From the sequence record SRR2962707_1525: a stretch of 32,839 nt of DNA; one strand, given 5' to 3'. The translations under genes and the position numbers were made by a program. The notes beneath the pieces are model-generated. The model was not told the DNA's origin. It did not search any database and was given only the letters and a program-made list of their open reading frames with translations. Below are positions 1,421 through 25,491 of the stretch, in pieces (within the stretch, counting starts at the first letter, position 1; each line of letters opens with the position of its first letter).

Positions 1421-2473
1421 ATGCCATTACGCGCTGCGATTATTGGATACGGAAAAATGGGCCGTATCCGTCACGATGCCATGGATCGCCACGGAGGGTT
1501 CGAGGTTGTTGTCGCCTGTGACACCGCCATTGATCCCGATGCGTCCATCCCGATGGTCACTGACCCAATGGCGGTTTACGATTACGATCCTGACGTGATT
1601 GTCTGCGGCGTCCCTAACATGATGATTCCCGATGTAGTCTGCGCAGCGCTTGAACGGGGTAAACACGTCTTTTCGGAAAAGCCCCCCGGGCGCAGTTCCG
1701 GCGATGTGCGCCGCATGATGGCTGCCGAAGATGCTGCCTTGGCTGCTCATGGTGGATTGGTGCTGAAATTCGGCTTTAACCACCGTGTGCATGACGCCAT
1801 TGAGGAAGCCAAGAAGCTCATCGACGCGGGTACTATGGGTGATCTCTACTTCATGCGCGGCGTTTACGGCAAAGCAGGTGGACCGGATTATGCCCAGAAC
1901 TGGCGCAATAACCCGGAAAAGTCCGGTGGCGGCATTCTCATCGACCAGGGCATCCATATGCTTGATCTGTTCCAGATGTTTGCCGGCCGCTTCACGAATG
2001 TGCAGAGCTTCGTACAGCGCAATTTCTGGACCGATGTGCCGGTTGAGGACAACGCATTCGCACTGATGAAGAATGCCGAGGGCATTGTTGCCTCCGTGCA
2101 TTCCTCTGCAACCCAATGGCAGCACACTTTCCGGCTGGAACTGTACATGCGCAACGGTTTCATCTCGGTGGACGGAATCCTGTCCGCCTCGGGCAGCTAC
2201 GGCGTCGAGGTGCTGACCGTCGCGCTCAATCGTCTTGATGCCAGCGGCAGCCCGACCCCGAACCCGGAACTGCAGGAGCTACGCTTTACCGAAGACAAAT
2301 CCTGGGACAAGGAAATTGCCGAATTCCATGCCGCCGTGGTGGAAGGTGTGCCCCTCAGGTGCGGCACCTCGCAACAGGCGCTGGACGTGATGGAGCTGGT
2401 CGAGGCGATCTATGCCGCCGACCCGGAGTGGAGCAAGATGCGGCAGCAGACCCCGCAGACGGTAACGGCATAA
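1421..2473 (+). CDS. Gfo/Idh/MocA family NAD(P)-dependent oxidoreductase
   Basis: N-terminal Rossmann AIIGYGKMG, EKPPG, GFNHR and GGGILIDQGIHMLD family motifs. Confidence 0.93.
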   Translation: MPLRAAIIGYGKMGRIRHDAMDRHGGFEVVVACDTAIDPDASIPMVTDPMAVYDYDPDVIVCGVPNMMIPDVVCAALERGKHVFSEKPPGRSSGDVRRMMAAEDAALAAHGGLVLKFGFNHRVHDAIEEAKKLIDAGTMGDLYFMRGVYGKAGGPDYAQNWRNNPEKSGGGILIDQGIHMLDLFQMFAGRFTNVQSFVQRNFWTDVPVEDNAFALMKNAEGIVASVHSSATQWQHTFRLELYMRNGFISVDGILSASGSYGVEVLTVALNRLDASGSPTPNPELQELRFTEDKSWDKEIAEFHAAVVEGVPLRCGTSQQALDVMELVEAIYAADPEWSKMRQQTPQTVTA

Positions 2474-2478
2474 AGATC

Positions 2479-3453
2479 ATGCAGACTCCTGTTTTCCTTG
2501 ACCATTTGCCCGACATCAACGCAGTGATCGGCCAAAAGTCCGAGCAATACCGGCTGCGGCGCACTCAGGCGCTGATCGGATTGATGCTGGATCCGTCCAC
2601 CCAGTGGCAGGAGCGCACAGGTTGCCCCGCCTGTGGTCAGGCCAACGACAAGAACCATATTTTCACGCAGACGATGATGGAATTTCGTCGCTGCAGCGGT
2701 TGCAATTCCATCTATGCTGCGCGTTGCCCCGAACAGGCTGTGCTCGATCAGCTGCGTCTTGACCAGATCGCCATCACCGCCAGCGACGCGCAGGGCGATC
2801 GGGAATTCGAATTCACCTCGCTTCTGAACTGGATCAGCCTCACCGGCGCGCGGTTGGAGCGTAGGCTGGATCACGTACTGGATATCCGTTTTTCCTCGCA
2901 GGCACCGGCCTGGCCTGATGCCACCGAACGGTTGAGCCACAACCGCACCTGGGAGTACCTGGGCCTCGAGCCCGAGGACCATGCCTTTTCGGGTCTGCGG
3001 GCAGCGATGGCCAAGGCGGCACCCCAGGCTGTCTTGATGCCTGCAGAACTGGATCGCGTGGCCGAGCCAGAAGCGTTGTTGACCGCGCTGAAGGAGACCG
3101 CCGCGCCGGGTACAGTGATCTTTGCCGCCAGCTCCTGCGCAGACGGGCTCGAATACGAGATCCTCGGTGCGGACTCTCCAAGCTTCGTGCCGCTCGACCG
3201 GCTCACGGTATTTTCCGTCAAGGGGTTTGAGGCTCTCAGCACCCGTCTTGGCCTGCGCGTGCTGGAGGTGTCGACTCCCGGTAGGCTCGATGCCGTGATC
3301 CTCGACCGCCATTTCAAGAGTGTCGAGAACACCACAATCCCCTTCTGGTCCAGCTTTTTCCGCGAGGCCGACAAAAATCGCCTGCGCGACTTGCAGATTC
3401 TGCTACAACGCAGCCTGAAATCGGGTGTGTTACGTTTCGTTCTGGAAACCTGA
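2479..3453 (+). CDS. Zn-ribbon + class I SAM-dependent methyltransferase-like protein with degenerate SAM-binding motif
   Basis: CPAC...CSGC zinc ribbon and C-terminal EVSTPGRLD, typical of polysaccharide-locus methyltransferases. Motif I reads VLDIRFSS instead of LDxGxGxG. ATG lies 5 nt after the upstream stop. Confidence 0.7.
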   Translation: MQTPVFLDHLPDINAVIGQKSEQYRLRRTQALIGLMLDPSTQWQERTGCPACGQANDKNHIFTQTMMEFRRCSGCNSIYAARCPEQAVLDQLRLDQIAITASDAQGDREFEFTSLLNWISLTGARLERRLDHVLDIRFSSQAPAWPDATERLSHNRTWEYLGLEPEDHAFSGLRAAMAKAAPQAVLMPAELDRVAEPEALLTALKETAAPGTVIFAASSCADGLEYEILGADSPSFVPLDRLTVFSVKGFEALSTRLGLRVLEVSTPGRLDAVILDRHFKSVENTTIPFWSSFFREADKNRLRDLQILLQRSLKSGVLRFVLET

Positions 3454-3486
3454 CCCTCCCCGTATCCAGAGATTAGGAATATTCTT

Positions 3487-4113
3487 GTGTCCAATTTTTT
3501 CCCCGTGACATCCTATGACAGCTGCAAGGACTTCGCAGGTGATTACTTTGCCACTCTCGCCAAGGCGACCCAACTCAGCGATCTCTCGGCGCTGGATCGG
3601 GTGGCGGCCCTTCTGAAAGAGACCATCGCGGCGGGCAATTTCATCTATATATGCGGCAACGGCGGCTCGGCGGGTATTGCCAACCACTCGCTTTGCGACT
3701 TTTTGAAATGCGTGCGCACCGACACAAATCTGATGCCGCGTTTCATGTCGCTCTCGGCCCATACCGAGATGAACTCGGCGCTGGCCAATGACATCTCCTA
3801 CTCCGAAGTCTTTGCTTATCAGCTGCAGTCCATGGCCCGCCCGGGCGATCTAGTGTGGACCGTCAGTTCCTCTGGTGACAGCGAAAACGTGGTGCGCGCT
3901 TTGCAGGTGGGCAAAGAGATCGGGTTGAAGTCGATTTCCTTTACCGGGTTTTCCGGCGGTCGGTCGAAGGACCTGGCTGATGTGAACGCACACGTGAACG
4001 CACAAAATTACGGTGTGGTCGAGGACATCCACATGGCCTTCATCCACATCCTGACCCAGTACCTGCGTATGACCCATATGGATGCCGCGTTGATCGCAGA
4101 CCGAAAGTTCTGA
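3487..4113 (+). CDS. SIS-domain sugar-phosphate isomerase, GmhA (sedoheptulose-7-phosphate isomerase)-like
   Basis: ICGNGGSA, ALANDISY, SSSGDSENVV, FTGFSGG and VVEDIH motifs. GTG start preceded by AGGA. Confidence 0.9.
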   Translation: MSNFFPVTSYDSCKDFAGDYFATLAKATQLSDLSALDRVAALLKETIAAGNFIYICGNGGSAGIANHSLCDFLKCVRTDTNLMPRFMSLSAHTEMNSALANDISYSEVFAYQLQSMARPGDLVWTVSSSGDSENVVRALQVGKEIGLKSISFTGFSGGRSKDLADVNAHVNAQNYGVVEDIHMAFIHILTQYLRMTHMDAALIADRKF

Positions 4114-4115
4114 GC

Positions 4116-4901
4116 ATGACTTCGGAGCTGCCTGCAGATCTGCACGACCGACTCTGCGCCCTCCTGCCCCGCCTTGTTCACGAGGTTTTTGCGCAGGATG
4201 TGGTGACCGAGGACAAGGGAAGCGATGGGCTGGATCTGGTCACGTCCGCGGATTTGGCCATGCAGACCCGGCTGGCAACAGAGCTTGCCGTGCTGCTGCC
4301 CGGCTCCGTGGTGGTGGGCGAAGAAGACTATGCGGCCCATCACGGGGCCGAGCCTGTCTGGCTGGTAGACCCGCTCGATGGTACGGTGAATTTTGTGGCC
4401 GAGCTGCCAGCCTATGGCGTGGCGGTCGTGCTTTTGCTGATGGGGCGGCCGGTGCTCGCGGCTGTCCACGACGTGCCGCATGGCGATCTTTATTCGGCCG
4501 AGTCAGGCCGGGGTGCGCGGATCAACGGCGCCCGGCTTCAGCGTCGGCACCACAAGGCGCGGCTTGCGGTGGTCTCTTCCGGTCTCGTGAAAGATCTTGC
4601 TGCGCGCGCGCCAGAGGCGCTGGTGGATCTGCTTGGGGATTTCAAGCTGCGTAATTTTGGCAGCCAGGCGTTGCATCTGTGCTATGCCGCTGCCGGACGC
4701 GTCAATCTGGTCGCGAGCCGCGAGGCCAAAGGCTGGGACGATCTTGCCGGGGCGCTGATCGCGCAAGAGGCGGGGCTGCACTATGGCAGCTATGCTCCTG
4801 CGTCCGAGCCGCGTCCGATGGATCAGGACCAGCTAAGCCTCTGCGCCCCGCCCGATCTGTTTGATCGCTACACGCCACTCTTCGCCCGCGCCTCCTTCTG
4901 A
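4116..4901 (+). CDS. inositol monophosphatase family sugar-phosphate phosphatase
   Basis: DLVTSAD, GEE, WLVDPLDGTVNF and WDDLAGALIAQEAG signatures. Confidence 0.93.
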   Translation: MTSELPADLHDRLCALLPRLVHEVFAQDVVTEDKGSDGLDLVTSADLAMQTRLATELAVLLPGSVVVGEEDYAAHHGAEPVWLVDPLDGTVNFVAELPAYGVAVVLLLMGRPVLAAVHDVPHGDLYSAESGRGARINGARLQRRHHKARLAVVSSGLVKDLAARAPEALVDLLGDFKLRNFGSQALHLCYAAAGRVNLVASREAKGWDDLAGALIAQEAGLHYGSYAPASEPRPMDQDQLSLCAPPDLFDRYTPLFARASF

Positions 4902-4933
4902 AAAGGCGCGTCTCAACCCGCAAGGATGACGAG

Positions 4934-5614
4934 ATGAAAACCGTTGCCATGATCCCCGCCCGCATGGGCAGCCAGCGTCTGAAGAAGAAGAACCTCGCGC
5001 CGCTCGCGGGCCAACCGCTGATCACCCATGCGATCAAGAAGTGCAAAGATTCGGGTCTTTTCGACGAGATTTACATCAACTCGGAAAACACCGAGTTCGC
5101 CCAATATGCCGAAGAATACGGCATCAAGTTCTACCAGCGCCCCGAAGCGCTCGGGAACTCGGTCGCCACGTCCGAGCAGTTCGTCTATGACTTCCTAAAG
5201 AACGTCGATTGTGACTTGCTCATTCAGGTACATTCCATCGCGCCGCTCCTGACGGCAGAGGAAGTGAAAACCTTTGCCGAAGCCTTTATTACCTCGGACG
5301 TGGATGTGATGCTGTCGTGCATCGAGGATCAGATCGAGGTCGCCTATCAGGACCAACCGGTCAATTTCACCTTTTCCGAGAAGGCCAACTCGCAGGATCT
5401 GAAACCCACCCAGCGGGTTACCTGGTCAATCACCGGCTGGCGCGCAAAAACCTATATCGAAGCGGTCGAGAGCGGCGGCATCGGCACTTATAATGGCAAG
5501 ATCGCGTTTTACCCGGTGGGTGCGATCTCTGGCCATGTGATCAAGACCCAGGTCGATCTCGATATCGCCGAGGCGCTGCTGAGCGTCCTTGCCAAACATG
5601 CTCAACACGCCTGA
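4934..5614 (+). CDS. acylneuraminate/Kdo cytidylyltransferase family protein (NeuA/KdsB-like CMP-ulosonate synthetase)
   Basis: IPARMGSQRLKKKNL CTP-binding motif, GQPLI and QRP. The C-terminal DID motif is atypical (HVIKTQVD). Confidence 0.88.
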   Translation: MKTVAMIPARMGSQRLKKKNLAPLAGQPLITHAIKKCKDSGLFDEIYINSENTEFAQYAEEYGIKFYQRPEALGNSVATSEQFVYDFLKNVDCDLLIQVHSIAPLLTAEEVKTFAEAFITSDVDVMLSCIEDQIEVAYQDQPVNFTFSEKANSQDLKPTQRVTWSITGWRAKTYIEAVESGGIGTYNGKIAFYPVGAISGHVIKTQVDLDIAEALLSVLAKHAQHA

Positions 5615-5625
5615 AGGATCTCGCG

Positions 5626-6546
5626 ATGAAAATTCTGGTTTCCAACATCATGATGATCAACGAGCGCGACCGCTTTGACGCGATCCTGCGCGAAAAGGGT
5701 GTGGCCCCTGTCTGGCCCGACGTGAACCAGTTCATGCCCGAGGCGCAATGCATCGAATTTGCGGGCGAAGTGGATGGCTGGCTCGCCGGCGACGACCAGA
5801 TCACTGAAAAGGTGTTGGAGGCCTATCTGCCACGCCTCAAGGTAATCTCCAAATGGGGCACCGGCATCGACAGCATCGACCTCGTGGCGGCCAAGCGTCT
5901 TGGGGTGCCGATCTGCAATTCGCCCGGCGCCTTTTGCGATGCAGTCAGCGAATATGCCATCGGCCTCCTGCTAGCGGCGACCCGGCGGCTGGCTCGCACC
6001 GACCGGATGATCCGGGCCGGCGAATGGCCCAAGGGCCGCTTTCCCGGCATGACGGGCAAGACCATGGGCGTGGTTGGCTATGGTGCCATCGGCCAGGGTG
6101 TGGGCCAGCGCGCCCGCGGCCTCGGCATGGCGGTGATCGCCTGTGATCCCTATATCCAGGCGGCCCCCGACGGCACCCCGATGGTCGATTTCGAGGTCCT
6201 GCTTGAACAGGCCGACGTGATTTGCCTCTGCTGCAACCAGACGCCAGAGAACTACCACCTGATCAACGCCGATACGCTGGCCCGCGCCCGCGACGGGGTG
6301 ATCCTGTGCAACGTCGCCCGCGGCGGTCTGGTGGATGAGGCGGCGCTGGTAGAGGGGCTGCGTTCCGGCAAGGTTGGGGCGGCGGCATTGGATGTCTTTG
6401 AGGTGGAACCGTTGCCGCAGAACCACCCGCTGATGGAGTTCGAGAACGTGGCCCTGTCCAGCCACAATGCCAACAGCACTGTTCAGGCCATCGAATACGT
6501 TCACGGCAATACGCTCGACAATCTGTTCAAGAATCTCTCAATCTGA
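5626..6546 (+). CDS. D-isomer-specific 2-hydroxyacid dehydrogenase (phosphoglycerate dehydrogenase family, no ACT domain)
   Basis: KWGTGIDSID, GVVGYGAIG, NVARGGLVDE, LDVFEVEP and SSHNA, with catalytic Arg/Glu/His intact. 306 aa. Confidence 0.93.
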   Translation: MKILVSNIMMINERDRFDAILREKGVAPVWPDVNQFMPEAQCIEFAGEVDGWLAGDDQITEKVLEAYLPRLKVISKWGTGIDSIDLVAAKRLGVPICNSPGAFCDAVSEYAIGLLLAATRRLARTDRMIRAGEWPKGRFPGMTGKTMGVVGYGAIGQGVGQRARGLGMAVIACDPYIQAAPDGTPMVDFEVLLEQADVICLCCNQTPENYHLINADTLARARDGVILCNVARGGLVDEAALVEGLRSGKVGAAALDVFEVEPLPQNHPLMEFENVALSSHNANSTVQAIEYVHGNTLDNLFKNLSI

Positions 6547-6552
6547 CCCCGC

Positions 6553-8388
6553 ATGCGTAGCCGGGGTATGACATATCGCCTGCAAACGGGCCTGTCTTCC
6601 CGGCCCTACGTGCAGGGCAGCGGGTTCGCCCCCAGCTTCTGGGCCCGCGCAAGCCATCTTGCCGTCTTTGGCGTGGAACTCTGCGTGACCCGGGGCGCGG
6701 TACAGGTGGATCTGATGCAGGATCAGCCGGGCGCCAAGCAGCAGTTGCTGGCCCGGCTGGATCGTCCCTTTCCGGGCAGCCAGTACAGCCCCGCCTTCAA
6801 CGTGCACGACCTGGCCGCGTCCGGTGGTGTGCTGCGCCCCGTGTTGCGGTCTGCCTCTCCGGATGCGGAATACGACCTCTGTTTTGCTACCAATGACCCG
6901 CCGAGCACACCGTGCCCTCGGTTGGCCTTCCTGTTGTCCGGTGCGCTCTCGGCATCGGTCGCGCGTCCCTTTGTAGAAGGCCTCTCTGACTTTCGTGCGT
7001 CTCCCCATATCGCGGGCAGTGCCGCCGCCCTGCTGCTGATATCGGCACAGACTGCCACAGCGCTTGGCGCGTCGCTGCCCGAAGGGGTCCACTCTACCGG
7101 CCCCGACGGTACTGGCTGGCTGCGCCGGGTCGGTTACGATCTGACGCAGGGGGTCCATACGGTTGCAGATCTCACCCATGTGGTGACGCTTGATCCCCGA
7201 CATGCGCCGGGGCCAGACACCCTGCCCTGCGCGGCGGCCCTTGCGCATTACCTGCGGGAAGAGGCGCTTCTGCATAGCCCGCCTGATGCCGGTGATTTCT
7301 GGCCCGAAAGCCTGATCGACCTGCGTCAGCTGCTGCGCCACGGGCTGCCGCGGGCCAGTTTTAGCGGCTACCTGACACGGCTGGAAAATGGCGGTCTCAG
7401 CCGTCACTGCCCTGTCGGCTCACCGCCGCCGTTGCCGCCGCTGAGCCGGATAAAACGCCTGTATCAGCGGCTGGCTGCATCGCGCCCGGCCAATCCTGAT
7501 CCTGCCCTGACCCGGCTGCGGCTGCAAACCGCCACGCAGCTGCGCCAGCGTGACCATGAGGCGGCAGTGGCACAGGACCGCCTGCAACGACGCCTGGAAG
7601 CCGCGGGCCTTTGGGAGCCGGAAACGGCGCGCGCCGAACTGGACCGGGCCAACCGCACGCTGCTCAGCCTCTTGCGCAACCGCCACAAGGGACAGCGGGC
7701 CGTCGTCGTCGGCAACGGGCCCAGCCTGCGCATCTCTGATCTCGACCGGCTGCGGGGCGACGTCACCTTTGCCTCCAACAAGATCTACCTTGCCTATGAA
7801 GACACCTCCTGGCGGCCCACCTACTATTCAGTTGAGGATCACCTGATCCTGCTGAACAACCGGGACCGGATCGAGGCGCTGGAAGGCAGCCTAAAGATAT
7901 TTCCCGCCAGCACCCGTGATTTTGGCTATCATGCGGCAGATACCGTCTTTGTGCCCTTCCTGCCCCCCGCGTCCTTTGACGATCCGCTTTCCGACCCGAA
8001 ATTTCCAGCCTTCAGCCGCGACCTCAGCCATGGACTCGCCTGGGGCTCGACAATCGTCTATAGTCAGATCCAGATGGCGCTTCATATGGGCTGCTCCGAG
8101 ATCGTTTTAATCGGTCTTGACCACAGCTATCACCTGCCTCCGGAAAAACGGGGGAACCAATACATCCACAACGGCGAGCAAAACCACTTTCACCCCAGGT
8201 ACCGGGACCCGGGAGAAGTCTGGCACCAGCCCAATCTCAACGTCCTTGAGGTTTCTTATGCAAAAGCCCGGACGGTCTGCGACGCCACGGGCGTTCCAAT
8301 TGTAAATGCCTCCCGGAAAACCGCTCTTGCCGTCTTTGAGTGTCGAGATTTCGACACCCTGTTTCCCCCTCCGGAGGCCCCCGTATGA
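6553..8388 (+). CDS. fusion of an eroded GlfT2-like N-terminal/GT2 region and a C-terminal DUF115/Maf/Cst-like (GNGPSL) transferase domain
   Basis: C-terminal domain from about 7672: VVGNGPSL, TFASNKIY, GSTIVYSQIQMALHMG, LIGLDH, NHFHPRY, IVNAS. The N-terminus aligns by eye with that of the 9295 protein. Start is 6553 or 6568. Confidence 0.8.
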   Translation: MRSRGMTYRLQTGLSSRPYVQGSGFAPSFWARASHLAVFGVELCVTRGAVQVDLMQDQPGAKQQLLARLDRPFPGSQYSPAFNVHDLAASGGVLRPVLRSASPDAEYDLCFATNDPPSTPCPRLAFLLSGALSASVARPFVEGLSDFRASPHIAGSAAALLLISAQTATALGASLPEGVHSTGPDGTGWLRRVGYDLTQGVHTVADLTHVVTLDPRHAPGPDTLPCAAALAHYLREEALLHSPPDAGDFWPESLIDLRQLLRHGLPRASFSGYLTRLENGGLSRHCPVGSPPPLPPLSRIKRLYQRLAASRPANPDPALTRLRLQTATQLRQRDHEAAVAQDRLQRRLEAAGLWEPETARAELDRANRTLLSLLRNRHKGQRAVVVGNGPSLRISDLDRLRGDVTFASNKIYLAYEDTSWRPTYYSVEDHLILLNNRDRIEALEGSLKIFPASTRDFGYHAADTVFVPFLPPASFDDPLSDPKFPAFSRDLSHGLAWGSTIVYSQIQMALHMGCSEIVLIGLDHSYHLPPEKRGNQYIHNGEQNHFHPRYRDPGEVWHQPNLNVLEVSYAKARTVCDATGVPIVNASRKTALAVFECRDFDTLFPPPEAPV

Positions 8389-9266
8389 TTACCGCCCCTA
8401 CAGTCTTCGACGATCGTGCCTGTACGTTGGGTGAGGGCCCGCTCTGGCATCCGCAACGTCATCAGCTGTTCTGGTTTGACATCGTCAATTGCAAGATTCT
8501 GTCACGGCTGGGAAAAAAAGCGTTCGATTGGACCTTTGATCGCATGGTAAGCGCCGCCGGCTGGATCGACCATGATCACCTATTGGTTGCGAGCGAGACC
8601 GGGTTAAGCCGCTTCAGTCTTGTGAATGGAACTGAGGATATGCTCTGCCATATTGAAGCGGTCAATCCTCTCACACGATCCAACGATGGTCGTGCAGATC
8701 CCTGGGGGGGCTTCTGGATGGGCACCATGAGCAAAACCGGGGAACCTGGGCAGGGAAGCCTCTATCGCTGGGCGCGTGATGAATTGCGGGTTCTCAAGAC
8801 TGGCCTGAGTACGCCCAACGCGATCTGTTTCGACCGGGGTCGCAACTGCGCCTATTATACCGATACGAAGACTCGGATCATCTGGCGCCAACCTGTCGAT
8901 CCGTCAACCGGTTGGCCAGACGGCGAAAGGCAGGTTTTTGTGGATCTGCGCGCCACATCCACCAGCCCTGAGCATAAGCCCGACGGTGCCGTGGTAGATG
9001 CCGAGGGCTGCCTGTGGAGCGCGCAGTGGGGCTCTGCCCGCGTGGCGCGCTATAGCCCCGAAGGCCAATTCCTGTCAGCTGTGACACTGCCGACAGGCCA
9101 CGCCTCTTGCCCTGCTTTTGGCGGCACGGATCTGCAAACGCTTTATGTAACAACTGCGCGGCAGAACCTGCCCGATGATCGCCCCGAGTGGCACCCGACG
9201 GCCGGACAGGTGTTTACGCTCGCGCTTTCGGTGGCTGGCCGGGCAGAGCCGCGTTGCGTTCTTTGA
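8385..9266 (+). CDS. SMP-30/gluconolactonase/LRE family lactonase
   Basis: LGEGPLW, LFWFDI, RSNDGRADPWGGFWMGTM, PNAICF, PDGAVVDAEGCLW and CPAFGG...LYVTTA. ATGA overlap with the upstream stop. Confidence 0.95.
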   Translation: MITAPTVFDDRACTLGEGPLWHPQRHQLFWFDIVNCKILSRLGKKAFDWTFDRMVSAAGWIDHDHLLVASETGLSRFSLVNGTEDMLCHIEAVNPLTRSNDGRADPWGGFWMGTMSKTGEPGQGSLYRWARDELRVLKTGLSTPNAICFDRGRNCAYYTDTKTRIIWRQPVDPSTGWPDGERQVFVDLRATSTSPEHKPDGAVVDAEGCLWSAQWGSARVARYSPEGQFLSAVTLPTGHASCPAFGGTDLQTLYVTTARQNLPDDRPEWHPTAGQVFTLALSVAGRAEPRCVL

Positions 9267-9294
9267 CCTTAACCAATCTTGGAAAAAGCCTTTT

Positions 9295-11937
9295 ATGACC
9301 TCTCCTCTTTCCCTTTGCGACCAGGCCCGTAGTGGGCACTTCATGCCGCAGCATGGGCTGTATCTTCTGCAGCGCTACCTGCCGGAGTTCGGCGGATCAG
9401 TGGTTAATTGCTTTGACGTCGCTGCCTGGACCGGCGCCACAAGCCTAGCGTGGGTGGGTGTACGGCTGGTGGTGCGCGAGGGCAATGTGCGCGTCACCCT
9501 GCGCCATGTGGCCCCCGATGGCAGCCAGAGCGATCTCGGGATGCTTGAGCAGAACGGGGTGGGCACCCAGGTGCTATCGGCGTTGCGGATCGCGGAACTG
9601 AACGGAGCCATCCTGCCCGAGGTGAGCGCGGAGGGAGGAATCAAAGGCAAACACGCGAATTACGACCTGCTGTTCGTGACCGACGATCAGCCCGTCACCC
9701 CAAACCTGCGTATCAATTACATCTTCTGCACTTTTAAACGGGCCGAATATGTCCAGTACAACGCGCAGGTGTTTCACGACTACCTGCGCCGCAACCGGGC
9801 CGAGGGCGAGGCGCATCTGACCGTGGTCGACAACGGCCATGATGGCAGTGCCACGGGCGGCCCCGGTGCCTGCGGCGTAAAGGCAGATCCGGATGTTACC
9901 GTCCTTGCCAACAACAATACCGGCGGCGCGGGCGGCTTTGGCCGCGGCATCTACGAGAGCTGCTACGGTGCGTTGGCGCCCCAGAGCTTCAGCCATGTCT
10001 GCCTGCTGGATGACGACATCCACCTGCACCCTGAGATGTTTGCCCGCAACACCGCCTTTGTGCGCTATCTGAAGCCCGGCTACCATGTGGGCGCGCCGAT
10101 GTATGCCATCTCAAACACGCAGAAGATCCCGAACAGGACCGCCTGTTTCGGGCATAAGTTCACCGGCACCGTGCATCCGCGCGACATCGCCCTTGGCGCA
10201 GGGCTCGACGCTCAGGACATCCCTGCCTTCCTCACCATGGACCGCGATCCCGACAGCACGGGCTGGTGGTGGAACTGCTTTGCCGTCACGGATGTCCAGC
10301 GCATCGGCCTGCCCTACCCGTTTTTCATCAAGATGGATGACGTGGAATATTCCCTGCGCCTGCAGGCGGCGGGGGTGAAGCTGGTGATCCCCGTCTCCTT
10401 CTGGGTACTGCACGACGACTTCGAGGAAAAATACTCTGCCGCGATGCAGTATTTCCGCCACCGCAACCGCTGGCTGCTGCTAGGGTTGCGCGGCGCATGC
10501 GATGACACGGATTTCTTCGTGAACGGCTTTGACGCCATTGTCCGGCATTTCGTCTCTGGGCGGCGTTATGAACATGCCCAGTTGCTGCTGGATGGGATGG
10601 CGCATTTCCTGCGGGGCCCCGAATATCTGGTCGCCCGGGAAAAGGAGATCCTCGCCGGAGTCTTTGCCAAGGTCTCGTGCGAGAAAAATATCCCCATGGC
10701 CACAGCGCCAAAGGGGGCGCCGGTGGTGAACGGTTTGGCCCCGCCCAGCAGCCCGGGCAACCAACGCCTGACCGAGCGTACCTGGAACAACCATTTCGTA
10801 CCGCTGAAAGATCGGGTCACCCTCGACACCACCCGGTCGCACGCTGACACCGATGTGCGTCGCTCCCGCGAGGTCAGCTACTGGAATGCGACAAAGGGCG
10901 TGGGCTACACTGTCAGGCGCAACTCGCTCCGTGCCCTGCGGCAGATGCTGGCCCTGCGACGATTGCGCAAGCGCATCCGGCAGGAGTTCCCCGCGCTCCT
11001 GCCGCGGTATCGGGAGGCAAAGGACCATTTCACCTCACCGGTGTTCTGGGCCACATATGGCAAGCATGGCGCCCAGGCACAGCTTGCGCCGCACCCGCAG
11101 GATCAGGGCGTTCTGGCGCTGCAGCACACGGTAGCGCGTTTGATCTGCGAGGCCGGCCCGCAGACCAAACGCGCGACAGTCACCGCCGGGGATCTGGCCT
11201 TTTTCAACAGCCTGCGCAACCGCTACAAGGGCCAGCGCTGCTTCGTACTTGGCAATGGACCCAGCCTGACGGTCAGCGATCTGGAGCTGCTGAAGGGTGA
11301 GGTGACCTTTGCCGCCAACAAGATTTACCTGTGCTTTGACGAGACGGACTGGCGCCCGACCTTCTATTCGGTCGAGGATCTTCTGGTGGCGCAGAACTGC
11401 CGCGCCGAGATCATGGCGTTGGACCGCACCACCAAGATATTTGCCGATCACATGCTGCCCTACCTGCCACGTCAGGCCAATCATCACTATGCCCGCTGGC
11501 TGCCGCCGATGGACAACCGCTCCCCCTTCCGGGAATTTTCCACCGATCTGACCAAGGGAATCTGCTGGGGCTCCACCATCACCTATTCGATGCTGCAGAT
11601 GGCGGTTCATATGGGATTTGAAGAAATCTATATCCTCGGCCTCGACCATTCCTATGTGGAACCCAAGACCAGGGAAGGCGGCGCGCTGGTCTCCGAGGGC
11701 GAGGTCAATCATTTCCATGCGGACTATCGCAAGCCCGGCGAGAAGTGGCATTATCCGGTGCTCGACCGGCTCGAACATTCCTATCAGTTTGCCAAGAACT
11801 ACTGCGACGCTATCGGCGTGAAGGTGTACAACGCGAGCCGCTTCAGTAAACTCGAGACTTTCCCCCGTGCCGATCTGGACGATGTGCTACACATTGAGCA
11901 CAGAAAAATCGGCCCTTGTTCCCACAGCCCAGACTAG
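9295..11937 (+). CDS. bifunctional glycosyltransferase: GlfT2-like GT2 fused to a C-terminal DUF115/Maf/Cst-like (GNGPSL) domain
   Basis: GT2 motifs CTFKR, VVDNG, NTGGAGGFGRG, LLDDD, GWWW and PFFIKMDDVEY. C-terminal domain from about 11212: VLGNGPSL, WGSTITYSMLQMAVHMG, ILGLDH, NHFHADY. Confidence 0.88.
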   Translation: MTSPLSLCDQARSGHFMPQHGLYLLQRYLPEFGGSVVNCFDVAAWTGATSLAWVGVRLVVREGNVRVTLRHVAPDGSQSDLGMLEQNGVGTQVLSALRIAELNGAILPEVSAEGGIKGKHANYDLLFVTDDQPVTPNLRINYIFCTFKRAEYVQYNAQVFHDYLRRNRAEGEAHLTVVDNGHDGSATGGPGACGVKADPDVTVLANNNTGGAGGFGRGIYESCYGALAPQSFSHVCLLDDDIHLHPEMFARNTAFVRYLKPGYHVGAPMYAISNTQKIPNRTACFGHKFTGTVHPRDIALGAGLDAQDIPAFLTMDRDPDSTGWWWNCFAVTDVQRIGLPYPFFIKMDDVEYSLRLQAAGVKLVIPVSFWVLHDDFEEKYSAAMQYFRHRNRWLLLGLRGACDDTDFFVNGFDAIVRHFVSGRRYEHAQLLLDGMAHFLRGPEYLVAREKEILAGVFAKVSCEKNIPMATAPKGAPVVNGLAPPSSPGNQRLTERTWNNHFVPLKDRVTLDTTRSHADTDVRRSREVSYWNATKGVGYTVRRNSLRALRQMLALRRLRKRIRQEFPALLPRYREAKDHFTSPVFWATYGKHGAQAQLAPHPQDQGVLALQHTVARLICEAGPQTKRATVTAGDLAFFNSLRNRYKGQRCFVLGNGPSLTVSDLELLKGEVTFAANKIYLCFDETDWRPTFYSVEDLLVAQNCRAEIMALDRTTKIFADHMLPYLPRQANHHYARWLPPMDNRSPFREFSTDLTKGICWGSTITYSMLQMAVHMGFEEIYILGLDHSYVEPKTREGGALVSEGEVNHFHADYRKPGEKWHYPVLDRLEHSYQFAKNYCDAIGVKVYNASRFSKLETFPRADLDDVLHIEHRKIGPCSHSPD

Positions 11938-11951
11938 TTTTTCAGGACACC

Positions 11952-14900
11952 ATGATGCTCTTAAAACGTAAGCTTTTCAAATCCTCTTCCCAAGAGGCAG
12001 ATGCGAAAACGGGGGCCTCTGCCCGATCTTATGAGCAGGTTTTGTCCCTTTCGCAGTCAACCGCTGTAGAGGCCAAGGGGTTCTTTGAAGGTCTGGCATC
12101 CGAAATCCGCATTTCAACGGCGCGGTTTGACCCGGTGGCTGGACGTTTGGAAGTCAACGGCTGGTGCCTGACACCCGAAGAAAACTTTGATCTCTTCGTG
12201 CAGGTCGTCGGCACCACCCTCATGTCCGAGGTCGCAGCCGCGACCGAAGACCGAATGGATGTCTTCCAAAAACTGCCGCAATACGGAAATAAGAAGAGTG
12301 GCTGGCGTGTGACGCTCCCCATCGAGACCCTGCCTGAAAAGGCAGTTGTGCGTGCCATCTACATCTCTGAAAATCGCAACTGCGTCTTCGACAGGGTCAT
12401 TGAGATCCGAGAGACAGGGTCCTTCCGCAATGAAAGTCTGAAGATCAAGAGCTGCACCTACAGCCCCTTGCGCAGCTTGTGCAAGATCGACCTAGAGCTA
12501 TGCAGCAGAAGAGCCGAGCTGACATTCGAGGTTGTTTCGGCAGAAGGGGTACGCCTCGAACAAGTCCACACTCGGACCTCCCCCGCAGATAGCAATGGTA
12601 TGCGTAGCGGAAAGCTGAACATTCAGATTCCGGGCCTGCGTGATCGGGAAGAACTTCGTGTCTCTGAAACCGGGAACCCCGCGTTACACGCCACAGTCGC
12701 GGTTTCAAGCGTACAGGATTCACCGCGCCGCATCACGGCCACCACGCCTTCTGTACGTCAGGAAAGCAGTTCCGCCGAGAATGCCCTGGATCTGGAAGCT
12801 GTGATCGCCTTGAAACGAGATCTGGCAGAACACGCCAGGCCAACAAAGGCCGAGGATGAGGTCTGCTACTTCCCGCCCTTTGAGAACAGCGCCGAACTGT
12901 CCAATCATTACCATCGGGCAAGCTGGTATCTGACCGGCTCTGACTCTCCGATTTCCCGCGTGACCTTCGCCGCAACCGAAGAACACAACAAAATCGCACC
13001 GGTGCCCGATCATTTTGGATCTCACAGCCTCGACACCGGCACATTAGATGTCATTGCCCCAGGAACCGCCTACACGGAGGCTTTGCTGCGTGCCAAGACT
13101 ATCTTTGTCTGGCGTCCCCTGACCAAGGGGTTGCAGCGCTATCTCTCCAAAATCCTGGGTAGGTCCACGATCCTCACCGTCGCCACAAATGACCCTGCTT
13201 CGGTGGAGTACGGCAACTACTGCAGGGGTCCATGGATGGTCTTGCCCGCAGCGGAAAAGCAAAAGTGCCTGAAGGAAAGCCAAGACCGCTTCCGAGCAGC
13301 CATGCAGGCGCAACGCGACGTCGGCAAGACATGCAGCGCAGTCTTTGGTACTGGCCCGTCGATCGATACAGCATTCGCGTTCGACTTTGGCAACTGCATG
13401 ACTGTGGCGTGCAACTCCGTGGTGGCGAATGACGCCCTTCTAGATCATATCCGCCCCGCCTTTATCTGCGCGGGCGACGCGGTGAGCCATTTCGGTGTCT
13501 CTCAATACGCCGAAACCTTTCGCAAGGACCTGATCAGGACCCTGATCGAACGCGACATTTACCTGTTCACCTCAGCAGCTATCGGATTTCTTCTTGTCCA
13601 GAAACATCCCGAAGTCAGCGACCGGGTGATCCTGTGTGAACAAGGGTTCAATGGTCTTAACTGCGACCTGGAAAAGATTTGGTCCCTGCCCCGCTTCGAC
13701 AGCACCCTGAATATCCACATGCTGCCGATCGCCACCAGCTTCAGTGATACCGTGTATATGCTCGGGTTGGACGGGCGAGACCCCAACCCTGTCAATAACG
13801 AGGATTTCTGGGCTCACTCCAAGGCCACTCAATACCATGATTTGGTGGACAGCGGACATATGGCACACCCCACGTTTACGCTGAATCGGGCACAGGCCAC
13901 CGAGGCCCGATACCTTGCCTCTGTGCATGAAAGCTTCATGTCTGGAGAAGCCTTGGGAAAGTCTTTCTTCACCTTGGCTGCCTCCTTCACACCGGCGGTC
14001 CATGCACGTCCAGTGCCTGACCATTGTTTCGAAACCTCCAGAGCCAACGGCATGCGCAAGCTGCGCGCCGCCCGCAGCCAGCCGCTGGCCAACATACCGG
14101 ACGCTCGACCAGTCAAAACCCGGGCAGTCAAAACCCGGGCGCTCATTGTCATGCAAATGAACCGTCGGCATTTCTCGGGTGGCCGCTATCACGGCACAAT
14201 GCTGGCAGAGGCGATGGCAGGTTTCTGCGACGAAGTCGTCGTCTGGAGCAGCAACATGCCTCCTTGGTCCGGAGATCTGTCTTTCAGCCCCCACCACCAC
14301 AATGTCAGTTACTGGATCAACGAATTTCTGCAGGCCCCAGACGGGGACTTCGATTATGTGATCGTCGTGCCAGACGGTTCGCGCAATCCCGACATGTACT
14401 ATCGCGCCTTGGAAAAGGCGCAATCCTGCAACGCCAAGACAGCCTTCCTGAACTTCGAGAGCCCCAACTGGTTCAACGCTTTGTCCCCAGTCGCCAAGAA
14501 AATGAGAGAGTCAGACAATTGGTTCGCTGCTGCCTGCTTTTCCGATATCATCCTGTCCTCGGCCAACACCGCCGTTCCCTTTGCGAAAACCTTTTACAAG
14601 ACACTGTTCCACACACCAACGTTTTCCGTAGCCCCCCCGGCCATCAACAGCCCGATCGCAGATCTGGTGAAACAGCAGAACCTGTCGCGTGAAAAGCAAA
14701 TCATCCTGATCAGCCGGTTCGGGAATACAAGCGCTCACAAGAACATTAATGCGATCTTCGACTGCATCGTTCCGGAGATGAAAGGGTACACGCTTGCCCT
14801 GATAGCAGGCACGTCTGATCTGCCGGACGACGAGACCCTGGCAGAGTTCAGAGCCAAACTGGAAGGCTTCGGCCTGTCTCTCAAGCTGCTTTACATGATT

Positions 14901-15434
14901 TCGGACCGGGAAAAGTACGAAGAGATCGCCAAATCCGAGTTGATGATCTTCCCGTCCCTTTTCGAAGGCTTCGGCTACCCACCTGTAGAGGCGGGCTACA
15001 TGGGGACGCCCTGTATTGCCTACGATCTCCCGGTCTTGCGGGAAATCAGCGCAGACCATGTGCATTTTGTGCCATGGGGAGACGAAGCGGCGCTGCGAGC
15101 CAAGATTGCAAACCTTCTACAGCAACCGCAGGAGGCACGTGTGCGGTGCACCACACCGCAAGTGCTGGACATCGCCAGCCTGACTGCCTTCAGCCGCACC
15201 CTGAAAGAGGTCCTGACCAACACGCCGGAGCCGAAAGGCGCTGCGGCTTTCTCCCGCGAACGTTTCCAACTGGCGCGCAAGGTCTATCTAGACGACTGCC
15301 ATGATACTGAGCTCTCTGGCGCAGTCATGAGCGAAGCGGCCCTGAACACCCTCATGGCCCGATACGAACGACTGGCCCATGAGGTGCGGGAAAAGCTTCA
15401 GGCCCGCAGAGGCAACACGGGGACGCAAGTCTGA
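11952..15434 (+). CDS. large multidomain glycosyltransferase: N-terminal beta-rich domains, central DUF115/Maf-like domain, C-terminal GT4 (GT-B) domain
   Basis: Central AVFGTGPSID...VACNS...MLGLDG. C-terminal FSGGRYH and FPSLFEGFGYPPVEA...PCIAYDLPVLRE (GT4 EX7E). N-terminal GW..R.DV..P..SGW motif. Confidence 0.85.
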   Translation: MMLLKRKLFKSSSQEADAKTGASARSYEQVLSLSQSTAVEAKGFFEGLASEIRISTARFDPVAGRLEVNGWCLTPEENFDLFVQVVGTTLMSEVAAATEDRMDVFQKLPQYGNKKSGWRVTLPIETLPEKAVVRAIYISENRNCVFDRVIEIRETGSFRNESLKIKSCTYSPLRSLCKIDLELCSRRAELTFEVVSAEGVRLEQVHTRTSPADSNGMRSGKLNIQIPGLRDREELRVSETGNPALHATVAVSSVQDSPRRITATTPSVRQESSSAENALDLEAVIALKRDLAEHARPTKAEDEVCYFPPFENSAELSNHYHRASWYLTGSDSPISRVTFAATEEHNKIAPVPDHFGSHSLDTGTLDVIAPGTAYTEALLRAKTIFVWRPLTKGLQRYLSKILGRSTILTVATNDPASVEYGNYCRGPWMVLPAAEKQKCLKESQDRFRAAMQAQRDVGKTCSAVFGTGPSIDTAFAFDFGNCMTVACNSVVANDALLDHIRPAFICAGDAVSHFGVSQYAETFRKDLIRTLIERDIYLFTSAAIGFLLVQKHPEVSDRVILCEQGFNGLNCDLEKIWSLPRFDSTLNIHMLPIATSFSDTVYMLGLDGRDPNPVNNEDFWAHSKATQYHDLVDSGHMAHPTFTLNRAQATEARYLASVHESFMSGEALGKSFFTLAASFTPAVHARPVPDHCFETSRANGMRKLRAARSQPLANIPDARPVKTRAVKTRALIVMQMNRRHFSGGRYHGTMLAEAMAGFCDEVVVWSSNMPPWSGDLSFSPHHHNVSYWINEFLQAPDGDFDYVIVVPDGSRNPDMYYRALEKAQSCNAKTAFLNFESPNWFNALSPVAKKMRESDNWFAAACFSDIILSSANTAVPFAKTFYKTLFHTPTFSVAPPAINSPIADLVKQQNLSREKQIILISRFGNTSAHKNINAIFDCIVPEMKGYTLALIAGTSDLPDDETLAEFRAKLEGFGLSLKLLYMISDREKYEEIAKSELMIFPSLFEGFGYPPVEAGYMGTPCIAYDLPVLREISADHVHFVPWGDEAALRAKIANLLQQPQEARVRCTTPQVLDIASLTAFSRTLKEVLTNTPEPKGAAAFSRERFQLARKVYLDDCHDTELSGAVMSEAALNTLMARYERLAHEVREKLQARRGNTGTQV
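14110..14140 (+). repeat. perfect 15-bp tandem duplication (CAGTCAAAACCCGGG x2), in frame, encoding VKTRA-VKTRA
   Basis: Read directly: 14110-14124 and 14125-14139 are identical, plus one extra C. Confidence 0.95.
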
Positions 15435-16696
15435 TGCGTATCTTCTACAGTGATTATGGTACAGATCCTGTCCGGATCGACCGCATAGAAACCATTTTGC
15501 GGGATCTCACCGTGGGGGGGGCCGTTGTGTGCCGGACCAGCGCCCAGCCCTTGGAGACGGTTACCCGCAATCTGGTGTTGCCAAACCTGATTGGGCCCTC
15601 GGGGAGGGGTATCGGGGTTATGCTGCATCCCGACATCACACTGACGGACCCGCTCCTGTGCATACAGGCAGCCACCCATCAATATGACTATCCGACAAAA
15701 GCAGCCCTGGATTGCTATTTGTCCGTCTCCTTGTATCGGGAGTACATCGAGCGAGAACTGGAGCGTTTTCAACCCGATCTCGTCATTCTGTGGCACCAGT
15801 TCAACGCCTATCACTATGCCATCTCCGATTGGTGCCAGCGCAAAGGCGTGCCAGTGATGTTTGGCGAGAACGGGGTTCTGCCCGGATCCTGGTGTTTCGA
15901 ATTTCAGGGACAGATGGCGGAAAGCTGGATTGCGCAACAGCCTGAGACTTTCAAGGCATTGCCTATCACTCGATCGGACCGCAAACATGCCACGGCCTAT
16001 CTCCGGCATGCCGCCAACACCCGCCTGAACCGCAAAGGCCAAGGGCTAAGTCTGCACGAGGTTGATCAGGCGACCGTATTGGCGGCAGACCCACGCCCCA
16101 AGATCATTTATGCGGGCGTCAACGACTTCAAGACCGGGCTTCAACCATTCACCCAGCATAGAACCCTGAAGCACACAGGAGACTTCATCAGCACCGAATC
16201 TGGCTTGCAGGCCCTGCTTCCTCTGGCCCGCAAGAATGGTTGGCACATCCTCTACAAGGCGCACCCTTCGATCAAGCACAGCACTACTGGGCTGGACAGC
16301 TATTCCGATTGTTTGACTGTCATCGACAAGCGCGTCGACCTGATTGACCTTCTGCATCAGGCAGATGCCCTCGCCACCATTGTATCGCAAAGCGCCTACA
16401 TGGCCTTGATACACGACACGCCTGTGGTCCTGATGGGGCGAATGCAACTCACCGGGTCGGGCTTGGTGGAGGAAGCCCCTTACTTCAACGGGCTGGAACG
16501 GGCAGTGCTGTCCGCCATTGCCGACACCGAAAAAACCGCGCGCTCCGACCTGCTGCGCGATCATGTTGCCCGCCTGATAAAATACTACGTCCTGTCTTCC
16601 GACTACGGCAAGCGGGGCATGTTCCGCTATGATCTCTCGGATGTAGCACCCTCGATCCTAAAGGGGCTGCGCCAATGGAAAAGGGACAGCGCATGA
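15434..16696 (+). CDS. capsule polysaccharide biosynthesis protein, KpsS/KpsC-like CMP-ulosonate (beta-Kdo-type) transferase fold
   Basis: GENGVLPG (E.G.LP), YKAHP (HP motif) and DALATIVSQSAYMALIHDTPVVLMG, typical of the Capsule_synth family. TGATG coupling to the upstream gene. Confidence 0.75.
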   Translation: MRIFYSDYGTDPVRIDRIETILRDLTVGGAVVCRTSAQPLETVTRNLVLPNLIGPSGRGIGVMLHPDITLTDPLLCIQAATHQYDYPTKAALDCYLSVSLYREYIERELERFQPDLVILWHQFNAYHYAISDWCQRKGVPVMFGENGVLPGSWCFEFQGQMAESWIAQQPETFKALPITRSDRKHATAYLRHAANTRLNRKGQGLSLHEVDQATVLAADPRPKIIYAGVNDFKTGLQPFTQHRTLKHTGDFISTESGLQALLPLARKNGWHILYKAHPSIKHSTTGLDSYSDCLTVIDKRVDLIDLLHQADALATIVSQSAYMALIHDTPVVLMGRMQLTGSGLVEEAPYFNGLERAVLSAIADTEKTARSDLLRDHVARLIKYYVLSSDYGKRGMFRYDLSDVAPSILKGLRQWKRDSA

Positions 16697-19388: not shown

Positions 19389-20702
<1,314 letters not shown>

Positions 20703-20704
20703 TT

Positions 20705-25481: not shown

Positions 25482-25491
25482 GCCTGTCGCC

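Follow-up and report, generated by a model that had tools for sequence, protein, structure and literature searches.

How might a keto-acid sugar be built and activated with cytidine monophosphate (CMP) where no gene for the usual synthase is in sight? To our knowledge, all characterized routes to such sugars (3-deoxy-D-manno-octulosonic acid (Kdo), sialic, pseudaminic and legionaminic acids, and Kdn) begin with a phosphoenolpyruvate (PEP)-condensing synthase. The question is raised by an operon in a 32,839-nucleotide stretch of DNA from the sequence record SRR2962707_1525 (hereafter, the window), which encodes a phosphosugar isomerase, a phosphatase, two dehydrogenases, a lactonase, a cytidylyltransferase and several sialyltransferase-like domains. 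The first-pass annotation of positions 1421-16696 had named these gene families, had reported the absence of NeuB, KdsA and any aldolase from the window, and had proposed that a CMP-activated 2-ulosonic acid might be made oxidatively, independently of a synthase. The gene families and the absences are borne out: Pfam and NCBIfam searches recover each family in its place, and no open reading frame (ORF) of the window matches NeuB, DAHP_synth_1 or an aldolase family.

Comparison of the window with related loci leads us to a reading that we regard as evenly balanced between right and wrong. The operon and a divergently oriented gene at positions 406-1191 would belong to a widespread cassette that makes a CMP-activated 2-ulosonic acid, with its 3-hydroxyl retained, by oxidation of a phosphosugar and with no PEP condensation.

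Conservation of the gene cassette

When one genome from each species was searched with the cytidylyltransferase, 22 loci with 76 to 91% identity came from Rhodobacteraceae (Tritonibacter, Epibacterium, Phaeobacter, Leisingera, Ruegeria, Shimia, Pseudooceanicola and others) and one from Xanthobacter agilis (64%). All 22 Rhodobacteraceae loci encode (tblastn, 43 to 92% identity) the Gfo/Idh/MocA dehydrogenase (hereafter, Gfo), the product of ORF 2479-3453, the SIS-domain isomerase, the inositol monophosphatase (IMPase)-family phosphatase, the cytidylyltransferase, the D-2-hydroxyacid dehydrogenase, an MptE-like transferase domain and the SMP-30 lactonase; the glycosyltransferases encoded farther downstream vary. 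Close homologs of the cytidylyltransferase are rare, occurring in 3 of 401 class-sampled and 3 of 401 family-sampled genomes, with the centre genome counted in both. The clade is nevertheless broad, with 1866 proteins found at an E-value of 1e-20 or lower. Homologs with 54 to 91% identity are present in distant taxa, and members in the range of 60 to 68% bear the source names Pseudoalteromonas, Alloacidobacterium and Labrenzia. A scan of metagenomes yielded 358 stretches, from which 80 loci were kept.

Partner genes were counted in the 41 loci that extend at least 5 kb to either side of the cytidylyltransferase gene, using tblastn with seeds from the window and five variant loci (at least 50% query coverage, E 1e-6 or better). 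The hydroxyacid dehydrogenase is present in 40 of the 41 loci, Gfo in 38, the phosphatase in 36, an MptE-like domain in 32, the isomerase in 30 and the product of ORF 2479-3453 in 23; NeuB and KdsA were found in none. When the loci are reduced to 19 clusters of the cytidylyltransferase at 80% identity, the hydroxyacid dehydrogenase is found in 18, Gfo in 16, an MptE-like domain in 15, the phosphatase in 14 and the isomerase in 13. The GC content of the cassette loci ranges from 33 to 73% (about 60% in the window). Pfam confirmation of the variant loci covered 45 of 97 and 75 of 166 listed ORFs, and no NeuB, DAHP_synth_1, DHDPS, HpcH or aldolase was detected among the ORFs scanned. Thus, the neighborhood comparison that the first-pass annotation had suggested as a check came out in its favor: in distantly related lineages, the enzyme set is conserved together with GNGPS-type domains, and neither neuB nor kdsA lies in the vicinity. 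That the cassette is a conserved genetic unit appears well supported by these comparisons.

Three other loci (L024, L031 and L057) were considered as members of the cassette and rejected. Their cytidylyltransferases are only 24 to 38% identical to that of the window, and they are loci of the nonulosonic acid type, with genes for proteins resembling 3-dehydroquinate synthase (DHQS), short-chain dehydrogenases/reductases (SDRs), and a CBS-nucleotidyltransferase or NeuB. These three, as well as L025-L052, were excluded from the counts as a different system. The three loci encode Gfo homologs (41 to 44% identity) next to the DHQS-like protein and the SDRs, and some of them also a CBS-nucleotidyltransferase, a HisF-like protein or NeuB (the latter in L031). 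The combination of a DHQS-like protein, Gfo and a cytidylyltransferase looks like another module for tailoring of keto-acid sugars.

The search for a synthase was extended to the whole genomes of five cassette-bearing relatives. None of the five contains a NeuB-family gene. A KdsA-like gene is present in each, on the same contig as the cassette and far from it in two genomes, about 24 kb away in a third (G001), and on other contigs in two drafts; a housekeeping KdsB, separate from the cassette cytidylyltransferase, was also found in all five. In G001, a complete genome, the KdsA match (contig 1, 2317875-2318626) is split into two adjacent pieces, possibly by a frameshift or an assembly error, with KdsB directly beside it.

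Predicted functions of the pathway enzymes

The isomerase matches the NCBIfam gmhA model TIGR00441 with 112.5 bits, under the cut-off of 209.45, and the GmhA structure 5by2 with an E-value of 3e-23 and about 30% identity to GmhA. The active site of GmhA is marked by the motifs GNGGS, ND, S-S/T-SG-x-S and E-x-H. Their counterparts in the window protein (GNGGS, ND, SSSGxS and ExIH) align with the structures of GmhA from E. coli and other bacteria, with Asp in place of the second Glu of the E. coli HFAEE sequence. In all five genomes, this is the only GmhA-like gene, so it is apparently dedicated to the pathway; none of the cassette copies scores above the TIGR00441 cut-off. The predicted role is isomerization of a ketose phosphate to an aldose phosphate.

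Two dehydrogenases would take part in the later steps. In the PDB, Gfo is most closely related to inositol 2-dehydrogenase, to sugar 3-dehydrogenases and to glucose-fructose oxidoreductase, and we propose that it oxidizes C1 of the aldose phosphate to give a lactone. The D-2-hydroxyacid dehydrogenase matches phosphoglycerate dehydrogenase with an E-value of 1e-55 (1wwk) and 9m0t, a probable 2-ketogluconate reductase, with 5e-39; its proposed activity is conversion of an aldonate, or aldonate phosphate, to the 2-oxo-aldonate. Between them in the scheme stands the SMP-30 lactonase, the start codon of which (ATG at 8385) overlaps the preceding stop codon.

The cytidylyltransferase matches the CTP_transf_3 profile above the cut-off of 22.6 bits, over profile positions 1-149 of 217, and its best PDB match is NeuA-like (9t4z, 4e-18). 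It falls below the cut-off of every NCBIfam equivalog model, including PseF (80.4 against 205.7 bits), kdsB (40.8 against 155.2) and the remaining KdsB models. The protein represents a separate clade and is predicted to activate a sugar acid as its CMP derivative. In one variant locus (L123), the IMPase-family phosphatase is fused to an MptE-like domain (a 536-residue product of ORF 12756-14366, with IMPase at residues 4-251 and the MptE-like domain at 297-452, by Pfam), which ties the pathway enzymes to the transferases. The same locus also contains three CTP_transf_3 genes and three additional MptE-like ORFs.

Two exchangeable positions in the cassette

The position of the lactonase is occupied by two unrelated families. 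SMP-30 is encoded in 18 of the 41 loci and a 6-phosphogluconolactonase (Pgl)-type protein in 7; no locus has both and 16 have neither (by clusters, 1 and 7 of the 19). SMP-30 is confined to the Rhodobacteraceae type, whereas other lineages carry the Pgl type, exemplified by locus L023, where the lactonase reaches 160.7 bits with the pgl model (cut-off, 124), and by L058, L105 and L119. A lactone intermediate is suggested because two unrelated lactonase families occupy the same slot; the swap to 6-phosphogluconolactonase points to a phosphorylated lactone, with the phosphatase acting late.

The second exchangeable position involves the divergent gene 406-1191. As a single sequence, its product gives a weak NCBIfam match (1e-6) and no Pfam match. 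A profile of the family (A2) retrieves from the PDB the 2-keto-4-pentenoate hydratase MhpD (1sv6, 1e-14, positions 5-229), the 4-oxalocrotonate decarboxylase NahK (8e-8) and HpcG (2e-4). Invariant columns of this profile are E92, E94, E119 and K47; this branch of the fumarylacetoacetate hydrolase (FAH) superfamily has a metal-binding ExE motif and a catalytic lysine. Full-length profile homology and the motif residues place the protein in the MhpD/HpcG/4-oxalocrotonate decarboxylase branch. The MhpD-like gene is present in 21 of the 22 Rhodobacteraceae loci (tblastn), lies within the operon in L056 and L058, and is single-copy and linked to the cassette in 5 of 5 genomes. A plus-strand ORF at 295-1338 (347 codons), the longest in this region, was considered as the gene instead and rejected: its product is rich in Arg, Gln and Cys, matches no family and is a shadow of the conserved minus-strand gene. 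Automatic calling of the longest ORF here would overlook the real gene.

The MhpD-like gene is found in 30 of the 41 loci (8 of the 19 clusters), DUF386 (YhcH) in 5 loci (5 clusters), neither in 6 and both in none. Among the positive loci, L023 is a weak case: phmmer and tblastn with two seeds were negative and only the seed from L079 gave a match. In four loci (L105, L119, L122 and L125), DUF386 directly adjoins the cytidylyltransferase gene (Pfam). MhpD-related enzymes bind 2-oxo acids through a metal, and the MhpD-like protein is probably part of the pathway, acting on a 2-oxo acid. YhcH is reported to be an anomerase of N-acetylneuraminate (Neu5Ac), itself a 2-ulosonic acid (PMC8141875). 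The case for a 2-ulosonic acid product is strengthened because both of these conserved accessory families act on 2-oxo acids.

A predicted oxidative pathway and its alternatives

From the gene content and family assignments, we infer the substrates, the order of the steps, the product and the cell location of the following scheme. A ketose phosphate, probably sedoheptulose-7-phosphate, would be isomerized to an aldose phosphate by the GmhA-like protein and oxidized at C1 to a lactone phosphate by Gfo. The lactone would be opened by SMP-30 in the window and by the Pgl-type enzyme in most other lineages, and the acid would be oxidized at C2 to a 2-oxo acid by the hydroxyacid dehydrogenase, after which the IMPase-family enzyme would remove the phosphate. 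The free 2-oxo acid could then be handled by the MhpD-like protein, or elsewhere by a YhcH-type anomerase, for ring closure, tautomerization or chemistry at C3/C4. Activation with cytidine triphosphate (CTP) by the cytidylyltransferase would follow, and the transferases, in which GT42/MptE-like domains are combined with GT2 and GT4 domains, would build the sugar into a surface polysaccharide that probably has galactofuranose as another constituent.

As a mechanism, the oxidative route is plausible, and its individual oxidation steps have precedents in Zwf/Pgl, in Epd/PdxB of vitamin B6 synthesis, and in the 2-ketogluconate(-6-phosphate) reductases GhrB and KguD. The strongest arguments for it are the two slot swaps, of the lactonase and of the 2-oxo acid families: a lactone and a free, cyclizing 2-oxo acid are the suggested intermediates because two independent swaps of unrelated proteins would be hard to explain otherwise. 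The synthase-independent route of the first-pass annotation thus stands in its outline, the gene set being conserved with no neuB or kdsA nearby; as to its placement of the phosphatase second, a late dephosphorylation now appears likelier. The phosphatase is placed after both oxidations because the lactonase is of the Pgl type elsewhere and the hydroxyacid dehydrogenase is closest to phosphoglycerate dehydrogenase. Such an order would mirror that of Kdo-8-phosphate and KdsC. A heptose as the probable starting compound, and a 3-hydroxy heptulosonic acid as the product, are suggested only by the likeness of the isomerase to GmhA, at the identity and sub-cut-off score given above.

Several observations weigh against this scheme. 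D-2-hydroxyacid dehydrogenases take 2R acids and the product of GmhA is manno-configured (2S), so the product of a GmhA-type reaction would be unfit for the next enzymes unless the isomerase yields the gluco epimer. The relatives of Gfo mix C1 oxidizers with inositol 2-dehydrogenase and sugar 3-dehydrogenases, which leaves the attack at C1 uncertain. Relatives of MhpD are known to add or remove water at C4, or to decarboxylate, and the product could therefore be dehydrated or otherwise differ from a plain 3-hydroxy ulosonic acid. The lactonase is missing in 16 of the 41 loci, the isomerase in 11, and both accessory proteins in 6, so a part of the scheme would be dispensable or supplied from elsewhere. 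The tblastn counts themselves hinge on the choice of seeds and on the 50% coverage rule, and six of the 41 loci are nearly identical. Finally, KdsA is encoded in all five genomes, and the substrate may derive from Kdo.

The last point leads to the first alternative, namely, that the cassette tailors a 3-deoxy ulosonic acid. Housekeeping Kdo or Kdo-8-phosphate would be modified, for instance by oxidation or epimerization, by Gfo, the hydroxyacid dehydrogenase and the MhpD-like protein, then dephosphorylated and activated by the dedicated cytidylyltransferase, with no new route to the carbon skeleton. Apart from the universal presence of KdsA in the five genomes, this explanation can draw on the Gfo homologs in two loci of the nonulosonic acid type, L024 and the NeuB-encoding L031, and on reports that the Gfo-family YjhC (PMC7315737) and the DUF386 protein YhcH (PMC8141875) act on preformed sialic acid. 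However, it explains neither the lactonase slot, filled by one of two unrelated families in 25 of the 41 loci, nor the dedicated GmhA-like isomerase and the phosphoglycerate dehydrogenase-like enzyme, and in none of the 41 loci is KdsA found near the cassette. We consider it improbable.

The kinship of the MhpD-like protein, as seen with profile A2, invites the second alternative, in which the route is oxidative but ends in an ulosonic acid that has lost water, such as a 4-deoxy-2-ulosonic acid. Enzymes of the MhpD/HpcG/4-oxalocrotonate decarboxylase branch attack 2-oxo acids at C3-C4; the MhpD-like protein would eliminate the 4-hydroxyl, one of the dehydrogenases would be a ketoreductase, and the sugar could have six carbons rather than seven. 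Indeed, relatives of Gfo include sugar 3-ketoreductases as well as 3-dehydrogenases, and such a product exists: 4-deoxy-2-hexulosonic acid is reported as part of the E. coli K3 antigen, the gene cluster of which was still unassigned in 2023 (PMC10433991; bioRxiv 10.1101/2025.01.29.635457). However, replacement of the MhpD-like protein by the anomerase-type DUF386 in 5 loci, and the lack of either in 6, fit a helper role better than an essential step that changes the skeleton, and this alternative, too, seems to us rather unlikely.

A non-ulosonic product, that is, a CMP- or cytidine diphosphate-linked cyclitol, alditol phosphate or aldonate, is very unlikely: an IMPase encoded together with a dehydrogenase resembling IolG recalls inositol chemistry (myo-inositol 2-dehydrogenase 3cea is the top PDB match of Gfo, at 1.3e-17, iolG is its second-best NCBIfam match, and IMPase is the classic inositol-phosphate phosphatase), but the cytidylyltransferase has the NeuA/KdsB fold, the transferases are akin to the CMP-sialic acid-dependent GT42, both interchangeable accessory proteins come from 2-oxo acid families, lactonases and a D-2-hydroxyacid dehydrogenase would have no role in cyclitol activation, and no inositol-phosphate synthase was found among the scanned loci.

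Transferases and the glycan

The oxidative route would end in the transferases encoded in the second half of the operon. The first-pass annotation counted four domains of the CMP-ulosonate transferase type, of which the three with GNGPS or GTGPS motifs are upheld, the third through hhalign only; the KpsS-like one is marginal. The motifs read VVVGNGPSL (ORF 6553-8388), FVLGNGPSL (9175-11937) and AVFGTGPSI (11916-15434). The first two domains are paralogs with 48% identity; against the MptE-like cut-off of 34.6 bits, the first falls just short and the second passes. The N-terminal half of the 611-residue protein that contains the first domain matches no known family. A profile built from ten GNGPS domains of the window and related loci (A6) matches the PDB structures of the GT42 sialyltransferases Cst-I (2p2v, 2e-6) and Cst-II with E-values of 2e-6 to 2e-5; these enzymes are CMP-Neu5Ac-dependent. 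The third domain has no Pfam match and no significant BLASTP alignment with the first (E 0.61), whereas hhalign against the MptE-like profile gives a probability of 90.9% (E 1.2e-6, 144 columns). In the ESM Atlas, it yields a weak lead, with scores up to 0.89 and an MptE-like cluster at rank 12. The KpsS-like protein matches PF05159 over profile positions 158-273 of 310 (116 positions) and nothing in the PDB by phmmer; homologs with 29 to 34% identity are encoded in L002, L015, L019 and L023.

The multi-domain transferases of the window suggest repeated incorporation of the sugar. UDP-galactopyranose mutase, often with a GlfT2-like galactofuranosyltransferase, recurs near the cassette (L003, L010, L013, L015, L019, L021 and L125), a recurrence that hints at an acidic sugar attached to galactofuranose or alternating with it. 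Many variant loci encode Wzm/Wzt-type ABC transporters and single-domain MptE-like transferases (Pfam), an arrangement that would fit a chain-capping residue. One of these loci, L116, which has two single-domain MptE-like transferases, encodes a Wzt ATPase (4178-5539) that ends in the carbohydrate-binding domain Wzt_C. In known systems, this domain recognizes the cap at the chain end, so the new sugar might act as a terminator there. The glycan may be a capsule, an O-antigen or an exopolysaccharide.

Gene content of the window

The operon is a single row of plus-strand genes that extends from position 1421 to at least 18216, in which neighboring genes are separated by 2 to 33 bases or overlap at their stop and start codons, judged from the ORF coordinates (Table 1). 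Three features of this region are additional to the first-pass annotation: the conserved ORF 2479-3453, the conserved divergent gene 406-1191, and the GT2 and GT4 domains joined to the transferase domains. Its last gene, just beyond the span of the first-pass annotation, encodes a fusion of an acetyltransferase with an FkbM methyltransferase, a probable glycan-tailoring enzyme; FkbM genes also adjoin the cassette in L056, L105 and L125.

Table 1 Predicted genes of the cassette and its surroundings in the window
Predicted product	Position	Strand	Evidence and remarks
MhpD-like FAH superfamily protein	406..1191	-	profile A2 against PDB, tblastn; divergent from the operon
Gfo/Idh/MocA NAD(P) oxidoreductase	1421..2473	+	PF22725, 94.6 bits
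Zinc-ribbon, class I methyltransferase-fold protein	2479..3453	+	AlphaFold2 model and Foldseek
GmhA-like SIS-domain phosphosugar isomerase	3487..4113	+	SIS_2, 69.6 bits
IMPase-family sugar-phosphate phosphatase	4116..4901	+	Pfam, 137.7 bits
NeuA/KdsB-fold cytidylyltransferase	4934..5614	+	CTP_transf_3 PF02348, 84.6 bits
D-2-hydroxyacid dehydrogenase	5626..6546	+	Pfam, 185.5 bits
611-residue protein, C-terminal MptE/GT42-like domain (GNGPS)	6553..8388	+	MptE-like, 34.2 bits
SMP-30/gluconolactonase-family lactonase	8385..9266 (ORF open from 8340)	+	Pfam, 221.7 bits
GT2 (GlfT2-like) and MptE/GT42-like (GNGPS) glycosyltransferase	9175..11937	+	MptE-like, 42.3 bits; Glyco_tranf_2_3, 28.1 bits
1172-residue protein, divergent GTGPS domain (about residues 430-760) and C-terminal GT4	11916..15434	+	Glycos_transf_1, 54.7 bits
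Possible KpsS/KpsC-like (Capsule_synth) transferase, marginal	15434..16696	+	PF05159, 23 bits (cut-off, 20)
Hexapeptide acetyltransferase-FkbM methyltransferase fusion	16675..18216	+	Pfam, NCBIfam; same operon
GSCFA-family protein	18335..19294	+	Pfam; homologs of about 50% identity in L012 and L018
UDP-galactopyranose mutase	19389..20621	-	Pfam
GlfT2-like galactofuranosyltransferase	22979..24805	+	Pfam

The second gene of the operon, ORF 2479-3453, has no Pfam match at E 0.001; its product and 83 other proteins make up an orphan family (84 in total). An AlphaFold2 model computed from an alignment of 30 homologs (A1) reached a predicted local distance difference test (pLDDT) score of 79.3, compared to 30 without the alignment. 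The best Foldseek matches of this model are the zinc-ribbon sugar C-methyltransferases MtmC (2.6e-9, TM-score about 0.5), KijD1 and TcaB9. The S-adenosylmethionine (SAM) motif GxGxG is missing from every aligned member of the family: VLDxRFxS takes its place in 30 of 30 aligned sequences (A1, A4), and the motif is also gone from the homologs in L105 and L122. The model best matches a zinc-ribbon, class I methyltransferase fold devoid of the SAM motif.

Downstream of the operon, besides the GSCFA protein and the two galactofuranose genes, the window encodes an ABC-2 permease and Wzz/ParA-like proteins (Pfam). Four plus-strand ORFs of this region, encoding proteins of 258 to 380 residues (20663-21805, 21858-22982, 24846-25622 and 25912-27009), remain without a Pfam match at a threshold as loose as E 1, and weak homologs of two of them (28 to 33% identity) are encoded in L008.

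Implications

Full-text literature searches found no publication that describes this enzyme set as a pathway. In a preprint on Leptospira (10.1101/771931), genes annotated as 6-phosphogluconolactonase, phosphoheptose isomerase, inositol monophosphatase and Kdo cytidylyltransferase are reported upstream of rfb, with no interpretation given there. Genes of the cassette are currently labelled 'acylneuraminate cytidylyltransferase', 'phosphoglycerate dehydrogenase' or 'hypothetical'. Genome mining for such sugars seeks the synthase; if the proposed pathway is real, current annotation would overlook an entire class of acidic surface glycans.

Taken to its full extent, the proposal is that many lineages share a new class of surface sugar, a 2-ulosonic acid that keeps its 3-hydroxyl. 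In the simplest case, it would be D-altro-hept-2-ulosonic acid or an epimer, derived from sedoheptulose-7-phosphate with neither PEP nor a synthase. Sialyltransferase-like enzymes would install it in glycans with galactofuranose and in others, either as a building block or to cap the chain. In this specific form, we put it forward tentatively and think it somewhat unlikely. If the cassette does work without a synthase, a monosaccharide new to chemistry can probably be described from cultivable and harmless marine bacteria such as Tritonibacter, Phaeobacter, Leisingera and Ruegeria, and new enzymes would become available for the synthesis of CMP-sugar analogs. The cassette would also provide the first functional context for the MhpD-like clade, for the methyltransferase-fold family without the SAM motif, and for single-domain MptE-like transferases outside flagellin glycosylation.

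Comparison with known pathways

The closest parallels are the Kdo pathway (KdsD, KdsA, KdsC and KdsB) and the pathways of the NeuB type, with which the cassette shares a phosphosugar made by a SIS-domain enzyme, a phosphatase acting before activation, a cytidylyltransferase of the CTP_transf_3 family, and CMP-sugar-dependent transferases. In contrast to both, it lacks a PEP-condensing synthase in each of the 41 loci and so does not qualify as a canonical locus. Two dehydrogenases and a lactonase replace the synthase, and the product should therefore retain the 3-hydroxyl. Unlike in the Kdo pathway, the isomerase is GmhA-like rather than KdsD-like, and the phosphatase belongs to the IMPase family rather than to HAD.

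The oxidative part resembles Zwf/Pgl, Epd/PdxB and GhrB/KguD in the conversion of an aldose phosphate to a lactone or acid, in the Pgl-type lactonase, and in the step between aldonate and 2-oxo-aldonate catalyzed by a D-2-hydroxyacid dehydrogenase. Those reactions are part of central metabolism or of cofactor synthesis, leading to catabolism or to pyridoxal phosphate, whereas the corresponding steps of the cassette are joined to a cytidylyltransferase and glycosyltransferases; furthermore, the predicted C1 dehydrogenase is of the Gfo family, unlike Zwf or Epd. A different parallel is salvage of sialic acid in E. coli, where YhcH and YjhC represent the same DUF386 and Gfo families that adjoin the cytidylyltransferase in L105, L119, L122 and L125. 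YhcH and YjhC are catabolic and act on Neu5Ac, and the window has the MhpD-like gene in place of DUF386.

The transferase domains share the GNGPS nucleotide-binding motif and detectable homology with GT42 (Cst-I and Cst-II) and with Maf/MptE-like transferases. Unlike these, the domains of the window lie within large proteins (611 to 1172 residues) as fusions with GT2 and GT4 domains, in a locus without genes for sialic, pseudaminic or legionaminic acid synthesis. Non-3-deoxy 2-ulosonic acids have precedents in bacterial surface glycans, in the 4-deoxy-2-hexulosonic acid of E. coli K3 and in Ko (D-glycero-D-talo-oct-2-ulosonic acid). Ko arises by hydroxylation of finished Kdo by KdoO. What would be new in the cassette, and appears plausible given its gene content, is the biosynthesis of a CMP-ulosonic acid in which the defining synthase is replaced by oxidation chemistry.

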